From a phage, in NCBI GenBank assembly GCA_020773975.1, contig GCA_020773975.1_3638.1: a stretch of 64,000 bases of DNA; one strand, 5' to 3'. The translations under genes were made by a program, and so were the position numbers. Below, piece after piece: positions 5,495 to 64,000 of this stretch (within the stretch, counting starts at the first letter, position 1; the number at the start of each line of letters is the position of its first letter). The notes beneath the pieces are model-generated. The model was given only the letters and a program-made list of their open reading frames with translations, made no database searches and had not been told where the DNA came from.

Positions 5495-6841
5495 TTGAGT
5501 AAAGTATTTGGACCTGCCAGTCCTAAACAAAAAATGATTTTGGAGAGTAAAGCCCAAATTCTAATAATTGGCGGGGCCGCCGGGTGTTTGTCTAAAGACC
5601 ACGAGGTGTTGACACCATCTGGCTGGATTAAGATATCAGAATGGTCAGGGCAGGACATTCTGCAATATGATAAAGCCACTGGGGAGGCTAAATTTATCCC
5701 TCCTTTAGAGTTTGTTAAACTCCCTTGCGACAAACTTACAAGAATAGAAGGTAATGGCATTTGTCAAGAGCTATCTGACGAACATACTGTGATTTATAAA
5801 CCAGACTATAAATCACAGCCAAGAACACTTTCTTTTTCTGAAGTGGCAGAAAGACATAACAACTCTGTTAAAAAAGGTTGGACAGGTAAGTTCATAACTA
5901 CATTTAACTATGATGGGCCTGGGATAGACATGACAGAAGGGGAATTAAGGCTTCAGGTTGCTGTCATGGCTGATGGGAGAGTTGTTAAAGAAGGGAAAGA
6001 TAATTATACACAGATGCGCTTTGCTAAAAAGCGTAAATATGACCGCTTAATCGAACTTTGTAAAAAGTTTGGATTAAGATATGAAGACAGAGGATCAAAA
6101 CCCAGTGAAAGATATACCACTGGGGAACAGTACGAGGTCATTGTATGGCCTAAATATCCTGATAAAAAATTTACAGAGAAATACTATCAGTGTTCAAATG
6201 AACAACTGGAGATAATACTTGATGAGATTTTTCATTGGGATGGTTCTTTTTGTAAGCCATATGGCGGTAAAACACATAACAGCTTTACAGGTAGATATTT
6301 TACTGCTCATAAGACGAACGCTGATTTTATTCAGTTTGTAGGATCTTCTCTTGGTTATAATACCACCATAAGCCATGACACAAGAAGTGGAAAGGACAGT
6401 TATACTGTTAATATTATGGCTAGAGGAAAAGGATTAAGGTCACTGGCTAATAAAGACAGAAAAGCTGAGTTTAAAGCGTTTACACCTACGGATGGGTTTA
6501 AATACTGCTTTGTAACACAAACAGGTTTCTTTGTTACCAGACTGGAAGATTGTGTGGTTGTCACTGGGAATAGTGGAAAATCATATCTCCTACAATTGAT
6601 GCCGCTTGCTTATGTCGATGACCCGCAGACAGCATGTATAATGTTTCGTAGGACAACACCTCAATTGACAGGTGCAGGTGGACTTTTTGATACAGCGAAA
6701 AGTATTTATTTGCAACTCGATAAGGAATGGAAGCCGAAGTTCAGGGAGAAAGCTCTGGAAGCAATTTTCCCATCTGGGGCAAAGGTGTTGTGGAGACACA
6801 TGGAGTATGAGAATAACAAATTAGATCATCAGGGTGAATAG
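5495..6841 (+). CDS. terL: terminase large subunit, N-terminal coding segment (P-loop ATPase) containing an in-frame intein
   Basis: TTG start after GGAGG RBS; Walker A split as IIGGAAG-[intein]-SGKSY; lies directly upstream of portal; ORF runs to a stop inside intron-like sequence, real exon end probably 6817-6829. Confidence 0.7.
   Translation: MSKVFGPASPKQKMILESKAQILIIGGAAGCLSKDHEVLTPSGWIKISEWSGQDILQYDKATGEAKFIPPLEFVKLPCDKLTRIEGNGICQELSDEHTVIYKPDYKSQPRTLSFSEVAERHNNSVKKGWTGKFITTFNYDGPGIDMTEGELRLQVAVMADGRVVKEGKDNYTQMRFAKKRKYDRLIELCKKFGLRYEDRGSKPSERYTTGEQYEVIVWPKYPDKKFTEKYYQCSNEQLEIILDEIFHWDGSFCKPYGGKTHNSFTGRYFTAHKTNADFIQFVGSSLGYNTTISHDTRSGKDSYTVNIMARGKGLRSLANKDRKAEFKAFTPTDGFKYCFVTQTGFFVTRLEDCVVVTGNSGKSYLLQLMPLAYVDDPQTACIMFRRTTPQLTGAGGLFDTAKSIYLQLDKEWKPKFREKALEAIFPSGAKVLWRHMEYENNKLDHQGE
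5585..6571 (+). mobile_element. intein (329 aa) with LAGLIDADG-type endonuclease motifs in the terminase P-loop
   Basis: Starts with Cys (CLSKDHEVLTPSGW), ends VVVTGN followed by Ser; internal LQVAVMADG and LDEIFHWDG motifs; removal restores GGAAGSGKS. Confidence 0.7.
6809..6817 (+). repeat. 9-bp direct repeat GAGAATAAC (copy 1) flanking the terminase intervening region
   Basis: Identical 9-mer at 8778-8786; joining the copies puts exon 1 and the C-terminal segment in frame (MEYENN-PDYLAF). Confidence 0.5.
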
Positions 6842-7537
6842 CTTGCCCTTCGTGCCTATAACGGTGGAACTCCCTATGGGAAAATACCGTGCCACAGAAT
6901 ATGGAAATATAAACTCTGGGTGTAACGACTATCTCCGATGAGTGTAGGAGAGTAGAATCACAAGCGATTGGTGATCCAAACGGCACGCCAAGGATGGAAG
7001 ATATAGTCTGTTCCACATGGAAACATGTGGCGGGTGTTTTAGCACACCGCCTCAGTGTAGCGAACTGAGGGGACAATAAGTTGCAATATACCTTTATAGG
7101 TTTCGATGAGGGTAGAACAGTGTGCTCTCTATAAACCCCTTTAATTGACGGGTAACTCTTTATACATATCACCACTAAGTAGGTATGGTAACATATTTAT
7201 GGTCAACGGTAATGACGTTGAGTATAGTAACAGTGTGAATGTTTAGACAATCCGCAGCGAAGCATCCCTACGGGATGAACGTTCAACGACTATCGCTTAC
7301 GGGCGTTAGGGCCAAGCGGTGAGGGAAACCTCCGGTTGATTATCAACCGCCGAAACAGGGGGGTGTGTAATAACACACAAGATATAGTCTGATCTGCATG
7401 GTGACATGCAGCAGCACGTAGTGGTGCGGGATAAGAGTAGCGATCTTATCTGAACAAAAACGACACAATTCACATGGTCACAGATAGATTATCTGATATC
7501 TCGTCTACGTTCAAACTCTAAATATCCGAGCAGGATG
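6830..7537 (+). mobile_element. group I intron-like intervening sequence(s) in terminase, no ORF
   Basis: Conserved core elements: P-like AATTGACGGG (7143), Q AATCCGCAGC (7250), R GTTCAACGACTATC (7282), S AAGATATAGTCTGATC (7379); a second R/S-like pair at about 6926 and 7003. Confidence 0.55.
7381..7430 (+). repeat. 50-nt intron core block (S element to P9 region), copy 1
   Basis: GATATAGTCTGATCTGCATGGTGACATGCAGCAGCACGTAGTGGTGCGGG; second copy at 8674-8723 with 2 mismatches. Confidence 0.7.
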
Positions 7538-7773: not shown

Positions 7774-7902
7774 TAAAAGAATAGTGGCTTCATGCAGTAA
7801 TGCATGTCGAATAACTTCGTTAATTGCTGGGAAACCCTTTGTATAAGGGCAATCAGCAGCTATAATTACTTTTCCGAAACTGTAGTAGGGAGAATGTTTG
7901 AG

Positions 7903-8589
7903 ATGAAAAATTTAGGATTTTTAGGGTATTCCCATTATTGTGCGACGTATGATGGAAGAATTTATAGTTTGTATTCCCACAAATTTTTACATCCTAATGT
8001 CCATAAGAAAACTGGCTATGCAATGTTAACGTTGTGTGAGGATGGTAAAAAGTTTCAAGTTCTTGTCCATAGGGTTATTGCTTTTGCTTTTGTCGAGAAT
8101 GATAGCCCTGATACAAAAACTCAAGTGAACCATTTAGATGGAAACAAACTTAATAACGCAGCGTGGAATCTTGAGTGGACAACTGCAAAGGAAAACACAC
8201 ATCACGCACATGAAATAGGGCTTAAGAAGTCTTATGTAAACAGTTACAGGCCTCTTGATGATAACACTGCCCTTGAGATATGCAGATTACTTGAGCAGGG
8301 TGCTAGAGTAAAGGATATCAGTGAGATGTTTGGTATTGGGCAGACTGTGGTTAGTAGTATCAAAGCTGGGAGAGTCTACCCAGACATTTCTAAAGAGTTT
8401 AATTTCAGGATGGTTCCTTCTTCCAACAGAATTAGTGAATCCAAAGTTATAGGGATATGTGAAGATCTGAGAGACGGTATCCTAAGCATTAATAAGATAT
8501 CTAAAAAATGGGGTGTTAGTTTTAATCTTGTTAGAAGAATAAAAGATAGAAAAACTTACATCTATATCTCAAACAACTATGAATGGTAA
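7903..8589 (+). CDS. intron-encoded HNH homing endonuclease
   Basis: ATG 9 nt after GGGAGA (alternative ATG at 7894); N-terminal GYSHY..YDGRIYS NUMOD-like motif, HNH signature VNHLDGNKLNN...NLEW...ENTHHAH, C-terminal helix-turn-helix-like repeats. Confidence 0.65.
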   Translation: MKNLGFLGYSHYCATYDGRIYSLYSHKFLHPNVHKKTGYAMLTLCEDGKKFQVLVHRVIAFAFVENDSPDTKTQVNHLDGNKLNNAAWNLEWTTAKENTHHAHEIGLKKSYVNSYRPLDDNTALEICRLLEQGARVKDISEMFGIGQTVVSSIKAGRVYPDISKEFNFRMVPSSNRISESKVIGICEDLRDGILSINKISKKWGVSFNLVRRIKDRKTYIYISNNYEW

Positions 8590-8771: not shown

Positions 8772-9557
8772 ATGCTGGAGAATAACCCAGATTATCTAGC
8801 ATTCCTTGAAGGTCTTCCAGAGGTAGAAAAAGCCCAGTTGTTGCATGGGAACTGGAACGCAAGACCTGAAGGGGCAAACTATTTCCAGAGATCTTATTTA
8901 AAAGAGGTTCCCTGCTTACCTCTCGGTGTTGTATCTGTTCGCCCGTATGATAAAGCAGGTACAGAAAGAACATCTGGAAACAGATATCCTGACTTTACAG
9001 CATCTGTTAAGGTAAGTAAAGACAATGATGGCTTTTACTACTTGTCTGGTGATTATTGTCCTGAATTTTTTGATGATGGTAGATATTCGACTCAAACGCA
9101 GGGAAGATTCTGTAAAAAAGCTGGGGAACGTGATGTTATCATTAAGAAACAGGCTTATTTTGATGGTGATGATGTCACTATAATTTTCAGTGTTGACCCA
9201 GGACAAGCAGGAATAAGTGAATTTTTAACAAGCTCTCGTGAACTAATAGCGGAAGGGTTTACAGTAGAAAAAGATCCTACACCAAGCAATAAATCAAAAT
9301 TAACACGATTCACACCGTTTGCAAAACTTGCTCAAGCAGGTATGGTGAGAATAGTTCGTGATAGTTTTGATCCTAAAACTTATGAAGCCCTTATGACAGA
9401 GCTTGAAAAGTTCAATGGGGAAAGGAGTACGACGACAAGAAAAGACGATTGGGTCGACGCCATTTCTTCTGGGATAAATTATCTTGAAAAAGAAGAAATA
9501 GTCAAACCTGTTGTTATTCCAAAAATTGTAGCTCCTACCTTGTATAAAAGAATATAA
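8772..9557 (+). CDS. terL: terminase large subunit, C-terminal coding segment (nuclease domain)
   Basis: ORF track; VTIIFSVDPGQAG and DDWVDAISSG resemble terminase nuclease acidic motifs; in frame with exon 1 across the GAGAATAAC repeats; real 5' boundary probably 8775-8790. Confidence 0.6.
   Translation: MLENNPDYLAFLEGLPEVEKAQLLHGNWNARPEGANYFQRSYLKEVPCLPLGVVSVRPYDKAGTERTSGNRYPDFTASVKVSKDNDGFYYLSGDYCPEFFDDGRYSTQTQGRFCKKAGERDVIIKKQAYFDGDDVTIIFSVDPGQAGISEFLTSSRELIAEGFTVEKDPTPSNKSKLTRFTPFAKLAQAGMVRIVRDSFDPKTYEALMTELEKFNGERSTTTRKDDWVDAISSGINYLEKEEIVKPVVIPKIVAPTLYKRI
8778..8786 (+). repeat. 9-bp direct repeat GAGAATAAC (copy 2)
   Basis: Identical to 6809-6817; see copy 1. Confidence 0.5.
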
Positions 9558-58530: not shown

Positions 58531-60514
58531 TAAATTTACGATACTCTAGCATCTCTGGAGTATTGAAATGCCTAATATTAATGTATTTTAACAATGGGTA
58601 ACGATCTTTCTTAATCTGTAGTAGCTTTTTCCCAATTCTCTTCTTGGCCTCTATCATCCTTAATGCTTTCTCACGACTATCTTCGTAGCCAGGAACTGAC
58701 CAATAACTGGGTATGTTTACCTTCATCTCCCATTTTGGGAAACTAGCTACCATCACACCAAAATAGCTAAGCTCTTTAACAATGTTATGATACTCATGAT
58801 CTTTCCCCACTTCTTGATATAAATGATATTCAAGAAGGTTAGTTTTTGCAAGAGCATGAATATCCTCCTCAGTTATAACCCGTGCCTCATCTGGCAGCCA
58901 ACTTGATCTGTTTAAAGGCACAATATATAACTTACCAGCTACACCAAGATTCTTAAGAAATGTTGGTGGTTGCTTTCTCCAAGATGTTCTAAGATTTGTT
59001 CTAAGATTGGAAACGTATCCTAACGGGCATAATCCTTTCACCTGCCCACCCCAGTAGACCATAGCCGCCTCAATATCTTCAAACTGAGCACGGGAAATGC
59101 GGGTTACATCTACGGAGCCATCTTGGTTGATTATCCAAACTTTATGACCCGGTTCGTAATAACCATAGCCACCATACTTTTTATCTGCTTTTTGCACTGG
59201 TCGTTTTTCAAGTTCAGATAACTTGAAAATCATCCCTTCAAAGAATTTATCACTGTATAAGGACAGAGCGTAATCAGCATCGGTTATAAATGATCTCTTA
59301 CCAAACTTCTCTGCGAGCCAGTTACATTTAGAGCGCACATACTTGTGATCATCATTGTAAACCAGTGGATGACCATTCATCAACTCTGCGTATGAATATC
59401 TCTCATCCTTACCACGGCGTGATCCTTCGCCACCATATGTTTCACAGTAATCTATGTAAGAACCATCAGTATAATTCTTGAACTTATTTGCAATAAAAGC
59501 AGCACCGTACTTTGTAGCGAAGTACCCGCCAATAAACTTCATATGATCAAGAACTGCTTTTAACGTTGGCAGATCGCTTAATTCTTTTGTGATTTCTTCT
59601 CCGCGAAGTCGGATAGCTTTCGTCACAAAACTTTCAAGTTTATCACGAAATCCCCCGTCATTCTTTCCTTCTACTGTCCACTCCCTGCCAGGATCTACAT
59701 TACAATCCCCAATAGGGATAGATACCGTCATCATAGGCAGTTCTTTGCGAGTAGAGAGATAATCAGAGAGATATGGTTGTTGCCCCATGATGACAACACT
59801 ATCAGCGTTTCTTGAAATGCTACTATACATCTCAAGAACCCAGCCAGTCTCCTCATCCTCATACCGATACTGAACAGGATAAGTGCGATCTTCAATCTGA
59901 GTTTTAACAAAAGGATCGTTAATAATATATGGGAATTTGGCATAACGAAGGCATTTTACAATAGCCTGTCGATAAGCTCCTGTTTCCCAAGTGTTTACGT
60001 TAAATTTAACCTCTACACCATTCTCCTCTGTTGTTTCACAACAGAATAAAGGTACAACCTCTGGTATTCCGCTGTTTTTGTGAACAGAGTATGTTGTTTT
60101 CACTCCATCTTTAACAGAAACAACTGTGAACATATCTGTTACTGCAAGAGGCGCTTTTGACCCAATACCTTTCGCGCCAATCAGATCATTACTGTTTCTT
60201 TTTGTGGACTTACCAATCATCATGAATGTACGTGTTACCATCTCATGATCCATACCTAACCCTGTATCCTTAACAGAATACCAAGGTTCCAAGTCTGTTG
60301 GTGAGTGGATGATGATGGGTTTATCAGAACACCCTGCCTCTGTATGAGCATCTACAGCGTTGAAGAGAGGCTCTCGTACTGCTGCCAAAGGTTTATCTTT
60401 ATAAATTCCATCGATAAGAATACTGAAAGTCTCAGGATTCATTGCAATTGATGCTTGGTATCTTTCTACGTTCCCAGTTACCTGAACTTTGTTGTCAGAT
60501 CTTTGAATAATCAT
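58502..60514 (-). CDS. rIIA-like protein with N-terminal GHKL-type ATPase motifs
   Basis: N box LFNAVDAHTEAG, G1 box VKDTGLGM, G2 GAKGIGSKAPLAV; 670 aa. Confidence 0.55.
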   Translation of the reverse strand: MIIQRSDNKVQVTGNVERYQASIAMNPETFSILIDGIYKDKPLAAVREPLFNAVDAHTEAGCSDKPIIIHSPTDLEPWYSVKDTGLGMDHEMVTRTFMMIGKSTKRNSNDLIGAKGIGSKAPLAVTDMFTVVSVKDGVKTTYSVHKNSGIPEVVPLFCCETTEENGVEVKFNVNTWETGAYRQAIVKCLRYAKFPYIINDPFVKTQIEDRTYPVQYRYEDEETGWVLEMYSSISRNADSVVIMGQQPYLSDYLSTRKELPMMTVSIPIGDCNVDPGREWTVEGKNDGGFRDKLESFVTKAIRLRGEEITKELSDLPTLKAVLDHMKFIGGYFATKYGAAFIANKFKNYTDGSYIDYCETYGGEGSRRGKDERYSYAELMNGHPLVYNDDHKYVRSKCNWLAEKFGKRSFITDADYALSLYSDKFFEGMIFKLSELEKRPVQKADKKYGGYGYYEPGHKVWIINQDGSVDVTRISRAQFEDIEAAMVYWGGQVKGLCPLGYVSNLRTNLRTSWRKQPPTFLKNLGVAGKLYIVPLNRSSWLPDEARVITEEDIHALAKTNLLEYHLYQEVGKDHEYHNIVKELSYFGVMVASFPKWEMKVNIPSYWSVPGYEDSREKALRMIEAKKRIGKKLLQIKKDRYPLLKYINIRHFNTPEMLEYRKFIDSKGEKGE

Positions 60515-60534
60515 TCAATACCTCTATGAACTAA

Positions 60535-61080
60535 TTATGCGTCAGGATGCTTGTAAAAAATATGATTCCCAACCTTCACTGTTTTCACCATGACTTTTGC
60601 CCAAGATGGCCTAACAGTAGTTGCATGATAGTACGTTGCTGATTTTGTGTAGTCAAGAGCCTTGTATAAACTTTTGTGGTCTTTATGCAATCTCATCAAG
60701 ATTTTAGCATAAAATTTAGCTCTTAACCACCTATCCTTTTCATAGACTTTAAAGGATTGCCCACCGAATGTCCAAGAGAATTGCCCCGGCTGGTAAACTA
60801 CTTTCTTGATAGTATGCGGGAAATTCTTGTCATCTTTTCTATTCAATGTGACAAAAGCGACACCCATCATTCCATAATCACCTTCTCCTCTTCCCTCTTT
60901 ATACAAGTTACAGGCAAGAATATTAAGCTCTGTATCATTCTTCTTGCAAATGTGAAGAACTTGGGGCTTCTTTGCACTTTCTTTGGCTAGAACAGGGGTA
61001 ATAGACAGAGAAAGTGCACAGCAAACTGCAAATAATAAAGATCTTATTTTCAAAACTAACTCCAGACAAATAAGCCCCAT
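60535..61080 (-). CDS. cell-wall hydrolase (SleB/CwlJ-like) with N-terminal signal-anchor; candidate endolysin
   Basis: ORF track 60535..61155 trimmed to internal Met (MGLICLELVL...); catalytic region ILACNLYKEGRGEGDYGMMGVAFVTLNR...VVYQPGQFSW. Confidence 0.55.
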   Translation of the reverse strand: MGLICLELVLKIRSLLFAVCCALSLSITPVLAKESAKKPQVLHICKKNDTELNILACNLYKEGRGEGDYGMMGVAFVTLNRKDDKNFPHTIKKVVYQPGQFSWTFGGQSFKVYEKDRWLRAKFYAKILMRLHKDHKSLYKALDYTKSATYYHATTVRPSWAKVMVKTVKVGNHIFYKHPDA

Positions 61081-61094
61081 AAAGGGGCTTTCTG

Positions 61095-61436
61095 TTAACG
61101 ATGGGTAATATCTCCAGATACTGTGTTTACACTTCCATGGATTGTATTTGCGCAAACATCGCCAGACACCGAAGACACATTGCCTAAGATATCTTTTTCA
61201 ACATTAATATCCCCAGATGTTGAGATCACACCATTAGAGACATTTCCATAGACATTGATACCACCTGATGTTGTACGTACCTCTTTAGCATCACCTTTGA
61301 TAATAACTGTGATGTTTTTATCGTTTGTGGTATGAACTAAATCACCATTGATATAGACATTATCACCCTTAGTGGTGATAGAGATACTACCATTGGTATA
61401 GTTTCCAGAAATTGTATTACCATTAATCGTAATCAT
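61095..61436 (-). CDS. beta-helix repeat protein (bactofilin-like repeats)
   Basis: ORF track 61095..61547 trimmed to internal Met (MITINGNTISGN); tandem degenerate G-x-[IV]-x-[VI]-x-G repeats. Confidence 0.35.
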   Translation of the reverse strand: MITINGNTISGNYTNGSISITTKGDNVYINGDLVHTTNDKNITVIIKGDAKEVRTTSGGINVYGNVSNGVISTSGDINVEKDILGNVSSVSGDVCANTIHGSVNTVSGDITHR

Positions 61437-61611
61437 TGTTTTGTTTCTCTTTAACAATAGGTGCTTTCTGAACAGAGTATACAAATGTTTTATTGTCTTC
61501 AATAAACTTTCTGCCCTGTTCTTCATCTTCAAAAATAATTGTGTCACACTTTGCCTTTAACATACCACGTTCTACAGTTGTGTGTGTCGTAGAAACAATT
61601 AAAGCCATCAA
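61423..61611 (-). CDS. hypothetical small protein (62 aa)
   Basis: ORF track. Confidence 0.3.
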   Translation of the reverse strand: MMALIVSTTHTTVERGMLKAKCDTIIFEDEEQGRKFIEDNKTFVYSVQKAPIVKEKQNNDYD

Positions 61612-62642
61612 GACACCTCGTTAAGTTGTTCCATGTACCAACTACGGGCTTTATTTGTTGTAAATTTTGCCACGTCTTTCATAGAAAGAGAATTGGCTTC
61701 TAACACATCTGCTTCTTCTTTGTTGATATCGCGGTTAACCCATGCGATAAATGCCCCCAGAGATGCGATGTCCAATCCAATTTCTTGCAACCCTTGTCGT
61801 AAACGGTTCTCAGTAACTGCATACTCCACAAAATCTTTGATAGATTGCAGTTTCACAGGATCAACAGCAGCCAGGGTTTTCACTTTAGAAACAGAATGTT
61901 TTTGCCCTTTCACTTTAAACCAAAGTGCAGAAACATGTGCCAAGTGGCGATCTTTAGGTGTCCATACCACACCCTCACCAACACCAGATACGCCAAAATA
62001 TTTACCTACTGGACACTCTTTTTCCACACCTTCGGTAATCTGTGCAATTTCTGATTGCACTGTCTCTGGCATGTTAAAAGGAATATCCAGTTCCCACTTA
62101 CCAAAAGTTAAAATATTATAAATACGTTGTTCTGGTAATCCAATGCCAAGAATATCGTTTAAAGCTAACCATTTCCGATGGTCATTCTCTTTTCCTACTG
62201 CCACACGGAAAATAGTAAAGAAAGGCATGATTTCAGATACCGCAACACCTTTCTGGATACCTTTCCCTGCAAATTCCCCAGCGATTTCTACTGGGAACTT
62301 AAATTCAATACCACGATCTTCGCAGATCTGTTTGACTTGCTCCAACAGGCCTTTAGGGTCTTTTTCAACCATAAAGGCCATAAACCCATAATTATCTTCT
62401 TCCAGAGACAAAACGCGTTCTTTGGACTGGTATACAACCTCATTTTCAGAATTAAAGACTACACGGCAATTAGTCCCGTGAATTTTAACTGTTCCTACAT
62501 AAGGAATGAGATATTGGTCTGGAGAGGCAACCTTACGCTTTATATTGCCATTCTCATCACGACCATCATAAGTCAGACGGTCATTAACCGCTCGGATAAC
62601 ATTGCGAAATTGACTAGTGCTTGGGTACTTAGTTGCTTGCAT
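61608..62642 (-). CDS. ATP-dependent RNA ligase (Rnl2-like)
   Basis: Nucleotidyltransferase motif I KIHGTN, motif III AGEFAGKGIQK, motif IV EGVVWTP, motif V WFKVKGQKH; about 344 aa. Confidence 0.6.
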   Translation of the reverse strand: MQATKYPSTSQFRNVIRAVNDRLTYDGRDENGNIKRKVASPDQYLIPYVGTVKIHGTNCRVVFNSENEVVYQSKERVLSLEEDNYGFMAFMVEKDPKGLLEQVKQICEDRGIEFKFPVEIAGEFAGKGIQKGVAVSEIMPFFTIFRVAVGKENDHRKWLALNDILGIGLPEQRIYNILTFGKWELDIPFNMPETVQSEIAQITEGVEKECPVGKYFGVSGVGEGVVWTPKDRHLAHVSALWFKVKGQKHSVSKVKTLAAVDPVKLQSIKDFVEYAVTENRLRQGLQEIGLDIASLGAFIAWVNRDINKEEADVLEANSLSMKDVAKFTTNKARSWYMEQLNEVS

Positions 62643-63015
62643 TACTATCTTCCTTATTAATAAAAGTCACACCAAGAGTTGCCTGGGCAAGAAGTTTCGT
62701 GATCTCCTGGCTCCATACAGGACTGGAGATAAAATGTTGTAATTGGAGGCTACCTAAGCGATAGGCGCTGTTCATCGTAATAGCATAGATCTCCCCATCG
62801 TGCATAATCAGACTTTCGACAACAGAAGTCCTGATATTAGAACCACTAAATCCACGCTTTTTGAGGTCATCTGCTAAGTATCCGCAGATACAACGCACAT
62901 CTTTTGTATCACCAAAACCGAAATAGGGTTCAGCACCAAACAGGATACCAGCGTATCTCTTCCCACAGACATAAGTATCTTTAGATACGCCTGTTACAGA
63001 TTTACTTTCCATCAT
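62629..63015 (-). CDS. hypothetical protein (128 aa)
   Basis: ORF track; overlaps RNA ligase start, suggesting translational coupling. Confidence 0.3.
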   Translation of the reverse strand: MMESKSVTGVSKDTYVCGKRYAGILFGAEPYFGFGDTKDVRCICGYLADDLKKRGFSGSNIRTSVVESLIMHDGEIYAITMNSAYRLGSLQLQHFISSPVWSQEITKLLAQATLGVTFINKEDSNASN

Positions 63016-63197
63016 TGTCCCTCCACATCGTCAATATCTTCCATACCATCTTGCCACAGAACTTCATAGCAAGCGTCATAAATTGCGCTCATAGCATCTT
63101 TACGATCTAACACATCTACAATTTTTGGATCAATACTTTTAATTGCTTCCGCAATTTTATCGTAAGCAATATCAGGATGCATGTTCTCTTTTGCCAT
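63012..63197 (-). CDS. hypothetical acidic protein (61 aa)
   Basis: ORF track. Confidence 0.25.
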   Translation of the reverse strand: MAKENMHPDIAYDKIAEAIKSIDPKIVDVLDRKDAMSAIYDACYEVLWQDGMEDIDDVEGQ

Positions 63198-63780
63198 CTG
63201 GGATCTCCTCTTCGTTTAAGACATAAATTGTCACATCACAATCATGGAGAACAGATTCTATCATAGTTTCTATGATTTTCCAATCCCCACCTGCTAGTCC
63301 AGCACCTATTTTTGGCAGCCCGATCTTATAATCAGACATAAAGCCATCTGTGTGCCTTTGCAAACAATCTCGCATTGCTGCTAAAGAATCGTAAAGGGCG
63401 TTATAATTCAGATCCCTCACACCCATTCTACGCCCATTATATCCGTATTGTGTGTACAGATTAAAACCCGCCAGCTTACCTTCGTTCATGACAGCCCAAG
63501 TATAACTGCCCAGTTTTGTTCGATCACCTTTCTCTGTCTTTAAATCTTCAGCATACATTTTTGGGAATGTATTCTTTATTTCTTTAGCAATTCCAGACCC
63601 CATGGTGCAAAATGTATTACAACCATGAGCTATCACATTAACATCCCTTTTAAGTGCTGCCTCTATTAAGCAACCAACTTTATACTTAAGCATTGTCTGA
63701 TACCTCTTCGCATTCGTATGGATAGATATCCAGTCTTTTCCCATTCCATTCGCAAGAGTAACACTCAAGAAAACTACCAT
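63172..63780 (-). CDS. macro-domain protein (ADP-ribose binding/processing family)
   Basis: DVNVIAHGCNTFCTMGSGIAKEI and IGLPKIGAGLAGGDWKII align with macro-domain glycine-rich motifs. Confidence 0.5.
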   Translation of the reverse strand: MVVFLSVTLANGMGKDWISIHTNAKRYQTMLKYKVGCLIEAALKRDVNVIAHGCNTFCTMGSGIAKEIKNTFPKMYAEDLKTEKGDRTKLGSYTWAVMNEGKLAGFNLYTQYGYNGRRMGVRDLNYNALYDSLAAMRDCLQRHTDGFMSDYKIGLPKIGAGLAGGDWKIIETMIESVLHDCDVTIYVLNEEEIPDGKREHAS

Positions 63781-63868
63781 TAAATATTTCTTCTCTTACT
63801 TCAAGAATATCTCCTGTTTTTGGATATCCATCAACATCCGAAAAATCAGAAATCATTTTAACCTTCAT
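63686..63868 (-). CDS. hypothetical small protein (60 aa)
   Basis: ORF track. Confidence 0.25.
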   Translation of the reverse strand: MKVKMISDFSDVDGYPKTGDILEVREEIFNGSFLECYSCEWNGKRLDIYPYECEEVSDNA

Positions 63869-64000
63869 TCACAACTCCTTTCAAGGAAGGCATTCATACT
63901 TTCCAATGCCTCGCTTTTATTTTTAGCACAAACAACAAACACACGCTTATTTTTATAGGTGTATCCTGCCATGACCATATCGGATCTTTCAACCCACCAT

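Follow-up and report, generated by a model that had tools for sequence, protein, structure and literature searches.

Gene organization of the locus

The DNA stretch that we analysed (64,000 nucleotides, hereafter the window) shows 96% identity to Escherichia phage Av-05, and its source is an Avunavirus-like (V5-like) coliphage. Close to its end, the ORF listing contains four minus-strand ORFs encoding, from upstream to downstream, a macrodomain protein, a small acidic protein (ORF61), a protein of 128 residues (ORF128) and an RNA ligase of 344 residues (Table 1). The overlapping starts and stops described in the original prediction could be read directly from the sequence, the overlaps amounting to 26 nt between the macrodomain gene and ORF61, 4 nt (ATGA) between ORF61 and ORF128, and 14 nt between ORF128 and the ligase gene. 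Homology of the region was far above chance, as attested by matches to PHROG 548 ("RNA ligase", E = 4e-73) and PHROG 335 (E = 4.9e-62). A Pfam scan of ORF61 gave no match over threshold. In TH18, the position corresponding to ORF61 carries no annotation.

The chain of overlapping co-directional genes does not stop at these four ORFs. Upstream, it runs on beyond the window end through a 60-aa ORF and another ORF (63865 onwards), and downstream it continues through two small ORFs and an endolysin gene to rIIA and rIIB. As the chain extends both ways, the boundaries of any "module" drawn within it are arbitrary. The region is probably part of a long array of early or middle genes, and helicase, primase and polymerase genes share this array with the ligase gene. 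The gene overlaps suggest that the chain may be co-transcribed. Scans of the DNA for promoters and terminators gave no signal over shuffled expectation.

Table 1. Features of the ligase and macrodomain locus and of the adjoining gene chain
Feature	Position	Strand	Remarks
Rnl2-family ATP-dependent RNA ligase, 344 aa	61608..62642	-	Nucleotidyltransferase domain ~aa 45-250; all-helical C-terminal domain ~aa 253-343
Ligase motif I, KIHGTN (aa 53-58)	62469..62486	-	K53, predicted AMP-accepting lysine
Ligase motif III, AGEFAGKGIQK (aa 121-131)	62250..62282	-	Aligns to T4 Rnl2 FGEFAGPGIQK
Ligase motifs IV, EGVVWTP (aa 223-229), and V, WFKVKGQKH (aa 241-249)	61896..61976	-	Align to T4 Rnl2 EGYVLKP and AIKCKN
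Ligase C-terminal helical domain	61611..61886	-	Invariant R280 and D305; profile alignment and AF2 model
ORF128, small beta-barrel-plus-two-helix protein, 128 aa	62629..63015	-	"Methyltransferase" in PHROG and RefSeq; homologous to N-terminal domain of fused Rnl2-type ligases
ORF61, small acidic protein, 61 aa	63012..63197	-	PHROG 35483 (no assigned function), E = 3.7e-40
Tk.4/AdfM-family macrodomain, 173 aa	63172..63693	-	ALC1/TARG1 class, SCO6735/Bt_1257 subtype; longest ORF reaches 63780
Macrodomain active-site elements	63286..63627	-	H23, 63625-63627; N26, 63616-63618; Q82, 63448-63450; P127-G136 phosphate-binding loop, 63286-63315
Upstream 60-aa ORF, same chain	63686..63868	-	PHROG 14198, labelled "exonuclease" (57-aa profile); overlaps macrodomain start; context, outside any demonstrated unit
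Two small downstream ORFs, same chain	61423-61611 and 61095-61436	-	PHROG 9816 and 3163, no assigned function; Av-05 annotation
SleB-type endolysin, after the two small ORFs	60535-61080		Pfam Hydrolase_2, E = 5.6e-21

The 344-aa protein belongs to the Rnl2 family

The four nucleotidyltransferase motifs originally reported for the 344-aa protein were all found in its translation. In an alignment of 43 homologues, K53, H55, G56, T57 and N58 of motif I (aligned to K35-N40 of T4 Rnl2), G122, E123 and G126 of motif III, E223 of motif IV and K243 and K245 of motif V were invariant, as was F145, which belongs to the motif IIIa set. The protein matches Pfam RNA_ligase, and its profile spans full-length T4 Rnl2 including the C-terminal domain (E = 9.5e-11). 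In this all-helical domain, which is homologous to that of T4 Rnl2, R280 and D305 map by profile alignment to the T4 Rnl2 segments VTLNRV and QDILEE, and an AF2 model places helices across residues 253-343. The fold of the catalytic domain is nearest to Rnl2-clade RNA ligases, not to DNA ligases or capping enzymes. Judged by its sequence, the protein is a genuine T4 Rnl2-type RNA ligase, as had been proposed; identity as a DNA ligase was ruled out by the profile and fold comparisons. Homologues occur in 154 of 50,697 phage records, with the patchy spread typical of accessory genes.

By family membership, K53 would form ligase-AMP from ATP, and the AMP would then be moved to a 5'-phosphate end that is joined to a 3'-OH RNA end, an action amounting to the sealing of nicks in structured or duplex RNA. 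The likeliest substrates would be structured RNAs, tRNAs among them, that host nucleases have cut. Rnl2-type ligases act on 3'-OH and 5'-PO4 ends, and the joint that they make contains no 2'-phosphate; ends requiring a kinase or phosphatase would be healed by enzymes encoded elsewhere. The ORFs scanned at 57.5-64 kb, 1-12.8 kb and 38.9-56.2 kb yielded no end-healing kinase, phosphatase or cyclic phosphodiesterase, in agreement with the absence of a polynucleotide kinase/phosphatase noted before. The ligase had also been placed in a wider toolkit with a tRNA array and a CCA-enzyme-like gene. The array is real and contains 11 tRNAs (263-2689), but it lies on the plus strand, about 59 kb from the ligase locus, and no gene resembling a CCA enzyme turned up. 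When the Av-05 CCA enzyme, RlaP and PTH2-like proteins were used as tblastn queries, the best E value in the window was 0.47, and Pfam and PHROG scans of the ORFs in 1-12.8 kb identified terminase, portal, protease and spanin, and no CCA enzyme. The proposed toolkit is thereby less convincing.

Outside V5-like phages, the neighbours of the ligase family are Rnl1, DNA ligase, metallophosphoesterase or tRNA arrays. Rnl1 and DNA ligase adjoin it in 13-14 loci. A calcineurin-like phosphoesterase domain (Pfam Metallophos) is fused to the ligase in P0031 and P0033, and is encoded by a separate upstream gene in loci L010 and L011. The ligase gene sits within tRNA arrays in the T5-like Proteus phage RP7 and in several metagenomic contigs; tRNA genes are present within 10 kb in 26 of 80 ligase loci, a modest enrichment, and none is present at the locus studied here. 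The phosphoesterase fusions and the placement in tRNA arrays point to a role of the ligase family in RNA end repair.

ORF128 is homologous to a domain fused to Rnl2-type ligases

ORF128 has homologues in 50 GenBank phage records. We rejected its label of SAM-dependent methyltransferase, the protein having neither a methyltransferase catalytic fold nor SAM-binding motifs. Its fold matches instead the RFTS domain of DNMT1 and SANTA-type barrels, not the OB fold. In at least six protein clusters, including those of Salmonella phage SSBI34, Acinetobacter phage ABPH49 and Serratia phage ChuuTotoro, the ORF128 domain is fused to the ligase, and this fusion is always at the ligase N-terminus, across several divergent clusters. 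Where the two are split, ORF128 is strictly upstream of the ligase gene, adjoining or overlapping it, and its disordered C-terminal tail occupies the position of the linker in the fused forms. A profile search of 1.84 billion proteins recovered only two forms of the domain, a standalone protein of 112-193 aa and a ligase fusion of 451-469 aa.

As the counterpart of ORF128 in other phages forms the N-terminal part of the ligase itself, the enzyme encoded here would be a split, two-gene version. ORF128, one of the two small ORFs of the original prediction but not singled out there, is the best supported partner of the ligase, and it is probably a ligase accessory subunit. The ligase most likely works with this protein encoded directly upstream, which would probably serve as an RNA-binding or targeting module. 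At loci L105-L107, the macrodomain gene overlaps an ORF128-like gene and no ligase gene follows within 6 kb; ORF128 is therefore not an obligate partner of the ligase.

The upstream protein is a macrodomain of the Tk.4/AdfM family

The macrodomain ORF does extend to position 63780 (63172-63780, 202 aa), but this is the longest ORF, and the true start of the gene is almost certainly an internal ATG at 63693. A GAAGAGG ribosome-binding site lies 9 nt upstream of this ATG, which gives an 8-nt overlap with the stop of the upstream ORF, and the resulting length of 173 aa agrees with the Av-05 CDS and with the listed homologues, mostly of about 150-210 aa. The Pfam Macro score (21.7 bits) is just below the cut-off of 22. 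Nevertheless, comparison of a profile of the family with the PDB gave matches spanning the full length, to Bt_1257 (2e-20), SCO6735 (3e-18), TARG1 (~1e-13), Poa1p (3e-10) and DarG (3e-9), which bears out the macrodomain assignment in both sequence and fold.

Residues H23, N26, Q82, G130, G132 and G136 were invariant among 37 homologues, and the active-site elements align with H24, N27, Q85 and G126/G128 of SCO6735. In that enzyme, mutation of these His, Asn, Gln and Gly residues abolishes or strongly reduces hydrolysis of thymidine-linked ADP-ribose, the loss of activity of the H24 mutant having been traced to a disrupted fold (PMC9411070). The loop of the phage protein is six residues longer than that of TARG1, as in the SCO6735/Bt_1257 subclass. 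Neither the catalytic lysine of TARG1 (K84) and DarG (K80) nor Asp125 of TARG1 has an equivalent, Q82 and A134 being present instead, which matches a mechanism of the SCO6735 type. No equivalent of SCO6735 Lys34 was found: S33 is aligned with it, and a lysine at position 32 occurs in 9 of the 37 homologues, not including this protein.

The protein is homologous over its full length to Tk.4 of phage T6 (34% identity, E = 6e-23). Homologues were found in 3004 phage records, and tblastn matched tk.4 in many T-even genomes. In T4, Tk.4 is AdfM and is genetically required to overcome DarTG2; tk.4 was the single significant hit against DarTG2 (preprint 10.1101/2025.11.20.689424), and rnlB insertions were neutral in the comparison consulted. 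By analogy with this T-even homologue, the anti-defence role proposed for the macrodomain is plausible. Its most likely activity is the hydrolytic removal of ADP-ribose from a macromolecule, the most probable target being the thymidine-linked ADP-ribose that DarT2-type toxins attach to phage single-stranded DNA, and the protein would thus be an anti-DarTG2 counter-defence enzyme with no need of the ligase. Given 34% identity to Tk.4 and the lack of an equivalent of SCO6735 K34, its substrate could differ.

Macrodomain and ligase genes are linked in one lineage

All V5-like genomes examined that carry a ligase or ORF128 homologue, those with a fused ligase included, have the macrodomain gene directly upstream, and the order macrodomain, (ORF128), ligase is kept down to 47-49% ligase identity. 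In SSBI34, the macrodomain gene directly abuts the fused ORF128-ligase gene. The adjacency is, however, limited to V5-like phages, in which a MoxR ATPase gene and the SleB endolysin gene are equally syntenic. Only 12 of 80 ligase loci have a macrodomain gene within 10 kb, and only 13 of 80 macrodomain loci have a ligase gene within 6 kb; in all 13, MoxR is located upstream as well, and in most of them SleB follows downstream. In T6 and T4, tk.4 and rnlB are far apart. Conservation of the linkage across unrelated lineages was thus not observed, the two genes lying together in a single lineage as part of a syntenic block.

Outside the close clade, the commonest close neighbour of the macrodomain gene is NAMPT, and NADAR and Sir2 are recurrent too. 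The gene adjoins NAMPT in about 33 of 80 macrodomain loci, often together with Sir2 and NADAR, and 15 loci contain NADAR-macrodomain pairs, parallel to AdfN and AdfM of T4. These neighbourhoods, the one-lineage adjacency and the separation of the T-even homologues speak against the proposal that macrodomain and ligase form one RNA-repair module. We consider it probable, without strong confidence, that they belong to two functionally separate accessory systems that adjoin by common descent, the ligase acting with ORF128 in RNA sealing and the macrodomain acting against DarTG2.

Weighing of alternative interpretations

The main alternative is that macrodomain, ORF128 (with or without ORF61) and ligase serve one RNA-repair or anti-defence pathway, in which the macrodomain would strip ADP-ribose from RNA (5'- or 3'-phosphate caps, base or 2'-OH adducts), or clear ADP-ribose-1''-phosphate, and the ligase would then seal. 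The tight packing of the genes and their conserved order in V5-like phages are consistent with such a pathway, as is the occurrence, in 10 Pakpunavirus-like loci, of macrodomain homologues 3.4-5 kb away from an Rnl1-type ligase. Yeast Poa1p, an ADP-ribose-1''-phosphate phosphatase that takes part in tRNA splicing, can be detected as a relative, TARG1 and MacroD1 are able to take ADP-ribose off RNA phosphate ends, and comparative genomics has connected RNA repair with phage Macro, 2H, KptA and Sir2 (PMC9503650). However, once the close clade (at least 50% ligase identity) is set aside, 67 of 80 ligase loci lack a macrodomain gene within 10 kb, and the commonest close neighbour of the macrodomain gene there is NAMPT and not a ligase. 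The window ORFs scanned yielded no Tpt1/KptA, Sir2, 2H or Pnkp, and Rnl1 and 2H-like HMMs had no match in the window or the Av-05 record. The closest characterized relative, SCO6735, has thymidine-ADP-ribosylated DNA as its substrate and shows no activity towards 5'-phospho-ADP-ribosylated RNA or DNA. The variant in which ADP-ribose-1''-phosphate would arise during NAD-dependent removal of a 2'-phosphate fits poorly with a sealing reaction that leaves no such phosphate. Together with the unlinked T4 homologues and their different behaviour towards DarTG2, these observations make a common pathway unlikely. A bolder form of it, in which ORF128 is an adaptor bringing damaged RNA to both enzymes for removal of ADP-ribose and resealing, is slightly more doubtful still. 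Its substrate would be, for example, a tRNA or mRNA modified or cut by a host ADP-ribosyltransferase or nuclease, and it would, if true, be a counter-measure to CmdTAC-type RNA-ADP-ribosylating defences or to ADP-ribose-capped RNA ends. ORF128 stays beside the macrodomain gene where the ligase is absent, an observation that bears on this form.

The separate roles given to the three proteins were also weighed individually. ORF128 might be no ligase subunit and act with the macrodomain or alone, its ligase fusions being incidental to gene packing. The ligase-free loci L105-L107 are consistent with this, as are the macrodomain gene upstream in every ORF128 locus examined, the Mydovirus genomes of the KB57 type, which have the ligase and lack ORF128, and a similar fold in many small phage proteins with no ligase link. 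Fusion always to the ligase N-terminus in divergent clusters argues against it, as do the domain forms recovered in the 1.84-billion-protein search and the absence of any macrodomain-ORF128 fusion among the 120 macrodomain homologues listed (~144-230 aa), and we regard it as somewhat improbable, though the least so of the alternatives. As for the macrodomain, its NAMPT, Sir2 and NADAR neighbours, and the NAMPT, ribose-phosphate pyrophosphokinase and Nudix hydrolase encoded by Av-05, could indicate action on soluble ADP-ribose derivatives (O-acetyl-ADP-ribose, ADP-ribose-1''-phosphate, cyclic ADP-ribose-type signals) in NAD+/ADP-ribose housekeeping or signal quenching. The database names "phosphatase" and "O-acetyl-ADP-ribose deacetylase" echo this idea, but they are propagated labels; NADAR neighbours are equally consistent with an anti-DarT pairing, the best structural relatives favour DNA-linked ADP-ribose, and the sole genetic test of a family member, that of T4 Tk.4, gave a DarTG2-specific phenotype. 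A soluble substrate is therefore a minority option, ranking below an independent ORF128. Finally, the ligase might serve nucleic-acid metabolism apart from defence, acting on RNA-3'-OH nicks in RNA:DNA hybrids at replication or in processing of transcripts or tRNA precursors. It shares its array with replication genes, and DNA ligase adjoins the family in 14 distant loci. To our knowledge, the role of T4 Rnl2 in vivo has not been established, and transposon insertions in rnlB of T4 and Bas37 are tolerated on E. coli K-12. The phosphoesterase fusions and tRNA-array placement indicate RNA end repair instead, and the accessory-type distribution of the gene is likewise unfavourable, so that this appeared to us the most improbable of the readings considered.

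Significance

Neither the ligase nor the macrodomain represents a new family, and both genes are already annotated in the near-identical Av-05 record; the original prediction as written adds little to this. What is gained is a connection between the macrodomain of Vequintavirinae and the AdfM (anti-DarTG2) family, which was defined by experiment; this gives a testable prediction on the defence sensitivity of V5-like therapeutic phages. In addition, a family mislabelled "methyltransferase" in PHROG and in the RefSeq records examined is a domain that is encoded either separately or as part of an Rnl2-type ligase. It points to an undescribed RNA-ligase accessory module and offers a handle on the role of phage Rnl2 in vivo. 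The locus also reminds us that tight gene packing in phage early regions is not evidence of a functional module.

Comparison with known systems

The closest known system for the ligase is T4 RNA ligase 2 (Rnl2, gp24.1, rnlB; PDB 2HVQ, 1S68). Rnl5 enzymes, such as NgrRnl of Naegleria gruberi and DraRnl of Deinococcus, carry an N-terminal OB domain and have no Rnl2 C-terminal domain. The ligase described here differs from them in having this C-terminal domain, and the ORF128 module, an RFTS/SANTA-type barrel, differs from their OB domain. The "heal-and-seal" systems, T4 Pnkp-Rnl1 and bacterial Pnkp/Hen1, have partners of the kinase/phosphatase type, whereas none was found among the scanned ORFs of this locus, and the ligase is of the Rnl2 type, unlike the Rnl1-type enzyme of the Pnkp-Rnl1 system. 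The Sir2-RNA ligase-polynucleotide kinase-phosphoesterase cluster of rV5, Mydo and Bas54 is a different locus, and a Sir2-ligase-PNK cluster like that described for rV5 and Bas54 was detected neither in the window nor in the Av-05 record.

The best solved relatives of the macrodomain are SCO6735 of Streptomyces coelicolor and Bt_1257, ALC1-like enzymes that strip thymidine-linked ADP-ribose from DNA. They share with the phage protein a glutamine in place of the catalytic lysine, the His and Asn residues, the Gly-rich loop and the longer mobile loop. K34 of SCO6735, important for DNA positioning, is a serine in the phage protein, and both relatives are cellular, whereas the macrodomain studied here is viral and known from its sequence. 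T4 Tk.4/AdfM lies in a different context, between vs and tk, whereas the present gene is flanked by small ORFs and the ligase gene; the DarTG2 phenotype belongs to T4 Tk.4, to which the present protein is linked by homology. Each of the two is a phage protein with a single domain, about 155-173 aa long, and they have the same H...N, Q and PxIGxGxxxG signature.

Gene organization of the locus

The four ORFs near the window end lie on the minus strand with stop/start overlaps of 14, 4 and 26 nt, and reading of the sequence revealed a purine-rich ribosome-binding site before every start. This overlapping arrangement and the ligase motif strings quoted in the original prediction were all found in the sequence. 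Over positions 60500-64000 the window shares 96% nucleotide identity with Escherichia phage Av-05 (NC_025830; Vequintavirinae, Avunavirus), and phage TH18 and related isolates are also close to it. Annotation of the window, Av-05 and TH18 indicated that the chain of overlapping co-directional genes is far longer than four ORFs. In TH18 a divergent region some 4 kb before the macrodomain gene marks its beginning, and the order is MoxR-like ATPase, macrodomain, ORF128, ligase, two small ORFs, SleB-type endolysin, rIIA, rIIB, helicase, primase and polymerase. Because promoter-like and terminator-like matches in a scan of the locus were no more numerous than in shuffled sequence, we infer co-transcription of the chain from gene packing. 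The 14-nt gap that separates a 113-aa ORF from the endolysin start holds a G+C-rich hairpin with a 7-bp stem, which may act as a weak terminator or in translational control; since it overlaps the endolysin start, it was set aside as a terminator.

Coordinates of features in the window and in retrieved loci (L-numbers)
Feature	Position	Strand	Remarks
Ligase ORF	61608-62642	minus	344 aa, ORF listing
ORF128	62629-63015	minus	128 aa, ORF listing
ORF61	63012-63197	minus	61 aa, ORF listing
Macrodomain, longest ORF	63172-63780	minus	202 aa, ORF listing
Hairpin	61072-61090	minus	
Large terminase, apparently split	5495-6841, 7804-8589, 8772-9557		N-terminal ATPase-like ORF, HNH endonuclease gene, C-terminal nuclease-domain ORF
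Oddly named tiny ORFs	window 63686-63868, 63865-63978; L001 1473-1694, 2433-2702		
MoxR-like AAA ATPase	L001 11999-13207		Av05_00160
PTH2-like gene of Av-05	L002 5055-5552		Av05_0065; elsewhere in Av-05, not in window
Ligase of Proteus phage RP7	L091 5001-5957		T5-like phage
Macrodomain, ORF128-like and SleB genes	L105-L107 ~5900-7470		IMG/VR contigs, 142-153 kb

The MoxR-like ATPase gene lies just past the window end, about 2 kb upstream of the macrodomain gene. In the related phage Bas54, a MoxR ATPase gene (bas54_0063) was reported to be necessary against the predicted defence system DS-28. Several tiny ORFs bear implausible propagated names, "exonuclease" (60 aa), "baseplate wedge subunit" (58 aa) and "DNA ligase" (73 and 89 aa). 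Like the "methyltransferase" label of ORF128, these names seem to be artefacts of annotation. The large terminase of the window appears to be split around an HNH endonuclease gene, and in Av-05 relatives the DNA polymerase is likewise interrupted by HNH genes.

The ligase belongs to the Rnl2 family

The ligase matched Pfam RNA_ligase (E 2.3e-9) and PHROG 548 (E 4e-73). Used as a single sequence against the PDB, it found T4 Rnl2 weakly (E 0.007), whereas a profile of 43 homologues aligned over positions 49-339 with residues 32-332 of the full-length T4 Rnl2 chain (E 9.5e-11), and therefore takes in the C-terminal domain that defines Rnl2. Residues invariant among the 43 homologues included K53, H55, T57 and N58 in motif I, E123 in motif III, F145 in motif IIIa, E223 in motif IV, and K243 and K245 in motif V. 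R280 and D305 of the C-terminal domain, also invariant, aligned to the T4 segments VTLNRV and QDILEE. This profile evidence makes the protein a new Rnl2-family member, as had been proposed.

ORF128 occurs split from or fused to the ligase

ORF128 was found to be homologous to an N-terminal extension of 100-120 residues present in longer ligase homologues (blastp E 6e-14 to 5e-5), namely P0038, P0049, P0051, P0052 (Acinetobacter phage ABPH49), P0056 (Salmonella phage SSBI34) and P0109. The aligned extension runs straight into the ligase N-terminus KYPSTGQFRN, and a fused form of 455 aa is also present in Serratia phage ChuuTotoro. In 5 of the 80 ligase loci a standalone ORF128 gene immediately preceded the ligase, and the two were at most 227 nt apart in the 14 GenBank phages with both coordinates listed. 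We searched 1.84 billion representatives with a profile (alignment A4) that included about 90 ligase columns, so that most of its 1183 matches were ligases; only matches spanning profile positions 1-105 were used. Among these, the ORF128 domain was either standalone (112-193 aa) or ligase-fused (451-469 aa). A Foldseek structure search of the BFVD viral library with ORF128 returned uncharacterised small phage proteins only.

No other evidence in the locus argues as strongly for a functional partnership as this fusion pattern. In L105-L107 the macrodomain gene is followed by an overlapping ORF128-like gene and a SleB endolysin gene with no ligase within 6 kb, indicating that ORF128-like proteins persist in the absence of the ligase, and Mydoviruses have the ligase without ORF128. 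Allowing for these two situations, we consider it moderately likely that ORF128 and the ligase work together.

The macrodomain resembles Tk.4/AdfM and SCO6735

The start of the macrodomain gene is most likely the internal ATG at 63693, to judge from the GAAGAGG motif 9 nt upstream and the 8-nt overlap with the stop of the preceding 60-aa ORF. The resulting protein of 173 aa equals the Av-05 CDS in length, and the homologues listed are mostly of about 150-210 aa. Its score against Pfam Macro (21.7) fell slightly short of the gathering threshold (22). With a profile built from 37 homologues, full-length matches were obtained to Bt_1257 (2e-20), SCO6735 (3e-18), TARG1 (~1e-13), yeast Poa1p (3e-10) and DarG (3e-9), which places the protein in the ALC1/TARG1-like class and bears out its identification as a macrodomain.

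Whereas TARG1 and DarG have a catalytic Lys, the phage protein has Gln (Q82) at the same position, and Asp125 of TARG1 is replaced by Ala. Its invariant H23 and N26, its Gly-rich loop and a loop six residues longer than that of TARG1 match the SCO6735/Bt_1257 subclass. K34 of SCO6735 has no conserved counterpart (S33). When the matching His, Asn, Gln and Gly residues of SCO6735 are mutated, hydrolysis of thymidine-linked ADP-ribose on DNA is lost or falls sharply, the loss of activity of the His24 mutant being attributed to a disrupted fold (PMC9411070). The protein was 34% identical to T6 Tk.4 (E 6e-23), and homologues were present in 3004 phage records. Judged by these similarities, it joins the Tk.4/AdfM and SCO6735-like family as a new member. 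T4 tk.4 is the single gene necessary to overcome DarTG2 and was named AdfM (2025 preprint, 10.1101/2025.11.20.689424). Given this homology, the best-supported function would be removal of DarT2-type ADP-ribose from phage ssDNA, a reaction for which no ligase is needed.

The Av-05 reference record contains a second macrodomain, a Tk.4 orthologue, outside the window. It belongs to a block at 103-114 kb of NC_025830 (L084) that resembles T4 in the genes present and in their order (internal head proteins, denV, e, nudE-like, regB-like, vs.1, vs, tk.4, tk, rI) and matches phage T6 at about 78% nucleotide identity over 2.3 kb. These features point to one of two origins, chimeric assembly with a T-even-like phage or a large horizontal transfer.

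Linkage between the macrodomain and the ligase

The original prediction was essentially correct in its observation and named both enzymes correctly; its proposal that they form a joint RNA-repair module is not supported. A macrodomain homologue was sought within 10 kb of the ligase homologue in 80 IMG/VR loci; it was present in 12 and absent from the remaining 68. Eleven of the 12 belonged to the closest clade, defined by ligase identity of 50% or more; in the other one, L025, the macrodomain lies 7.6 kb downstream. Conversely, a ligase was within 6 kb in 13 of 80 macrodomain loci, all 13 with the MoxR ATPase upstream and most with the SleB endolysin downstream, so that the adjacency is conserved block synteny rather than a specific pairing. 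Two observations leave a joint module with some, though low, probability: the macrodomain gene immediately precedes its neighbour in all V5-like genomes, those with an ORF128-ligase fusion (SSBI34, ABPH49) included, and ten Pakpunavirus-like loci have macrodomain homologues at 3.4-5 kb from an Rnl1-type ligase. In T-even phages the two are unlinked, tk.4 lying between vs and tk while rnlB adjoins gene 24, and no macrodomain fusion was found among ligase homologues with extensions. SCO6735 is without activity on 5'-phospho-ADP-ribosylated RNA and DNA (PMC11833690). Taken together, a joint module has a low probability.

Elsewhere among the 80 macrodomain loci, the macrodomain gene adjoins NAMPT (about 33 loci), NADAR (15) and Sir2 (16); the NADAR pairs mirror AdfN and AdfM of T4. 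NAMPT, NADAR, macrodomain, a small unknown protein, a membrane protein and Sir2 form a conserved phage cluster on contigs of 16 to 369 kb (L115, L117, L127, L141-L144, L147-L150, L158-L160 and others), and Pakpunavirus-like phages of ~93 kb have a separate cluster of Rnl1, NAMPT and macrodomain. Both look like NAD+/ADP-ribose counter-defence islands.

tRNA and end-healing genes

Some ligase homologues lie inside a tRNA gene array, as in Proteus phage RP7 and the metagenomic contigs L026, L056 and L081; these and the homologues of L016 and L017 are inside or at the edge of large arrays. A tmRNA gene stands beside the homologue in L016, L017 and L081, and in L016 and L017 it is followed immediately by a tRNA whose anticodon is CTA (amber suppressor-like). 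Such contexts support a role of the ligase family in the repair of RNA, probably tRNA. Across the 80 loci, tRNA genes within 10 kb of the ligase were only modestly enriched (26 loci); proximity is real in some lineages, and we did not treat it as a general property of the family or as strong evidence.

Among the ORFs of the window that were scanned, we found no gene for a kinase, phosphatase, 2H protein, Sir2, Tpt1 or Rnl1, in line with the earlier failure to recognise a polynucleotide kinase/phosphatase there. HMMs for Rnl1, 2H-like phosphoesterase and DNA ligase, made from neighbours of distant ligase loci, matched neither the window nor Av-05. The Av-05 "thymidylate kinase" and "metal-dependent phosphohydrolase" genes just past the window end were considered as an HD-Pnk end-healing pair and dropped: neither had a Pfam match at E < 0.01, the former has no Walker A motif on inspection, and the TH18 homologue of the latter is labelled guanosine-3',5'-bis(diphosphate) 3'-pyrophosphohydrolase. 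CCA-adding enzyme, RlaP and PTH2-like genes are in the Av-05 record and absent from the window; with no counterpart of the Av-05 CCA enzyme there, the CCA-enzyme-like gene previously proposed was not borne out. With the stretches of the Av-05 record used for comparison (31-103 kb), the first 17.5 kb of the window gave no alignment. In 12 distant loci the ligase is followed, about 2 kb downstream, by a member of a PTH2-like (peptidyl-tRNA hydrolase 2) family.

Comparison with known systems

The Sir2-RNA ligase-polynucleotide kinase-phosphoesterase cluster of rV5, Mydo and Bas54 (PMC9503650 for comparative genomics) occupies a locus other than the macrodomain-ligase region. The ligase and macrodomain are both already annotated as such in NC_025830, and phage Macro domains, NAD+ and RNA repair have been treated in general terms in published comparative genomics. 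In the literature searched, no account was found of an Rnl2-type ligase with ORF128 as an accessory domain, whether split off or fused, which gives it modest novelty. Relative to known systems, the ligase and the macrodomain are themselves of known families, and ORF128, split from or fused with the Rnl2-type ligase, is a modest new variant.
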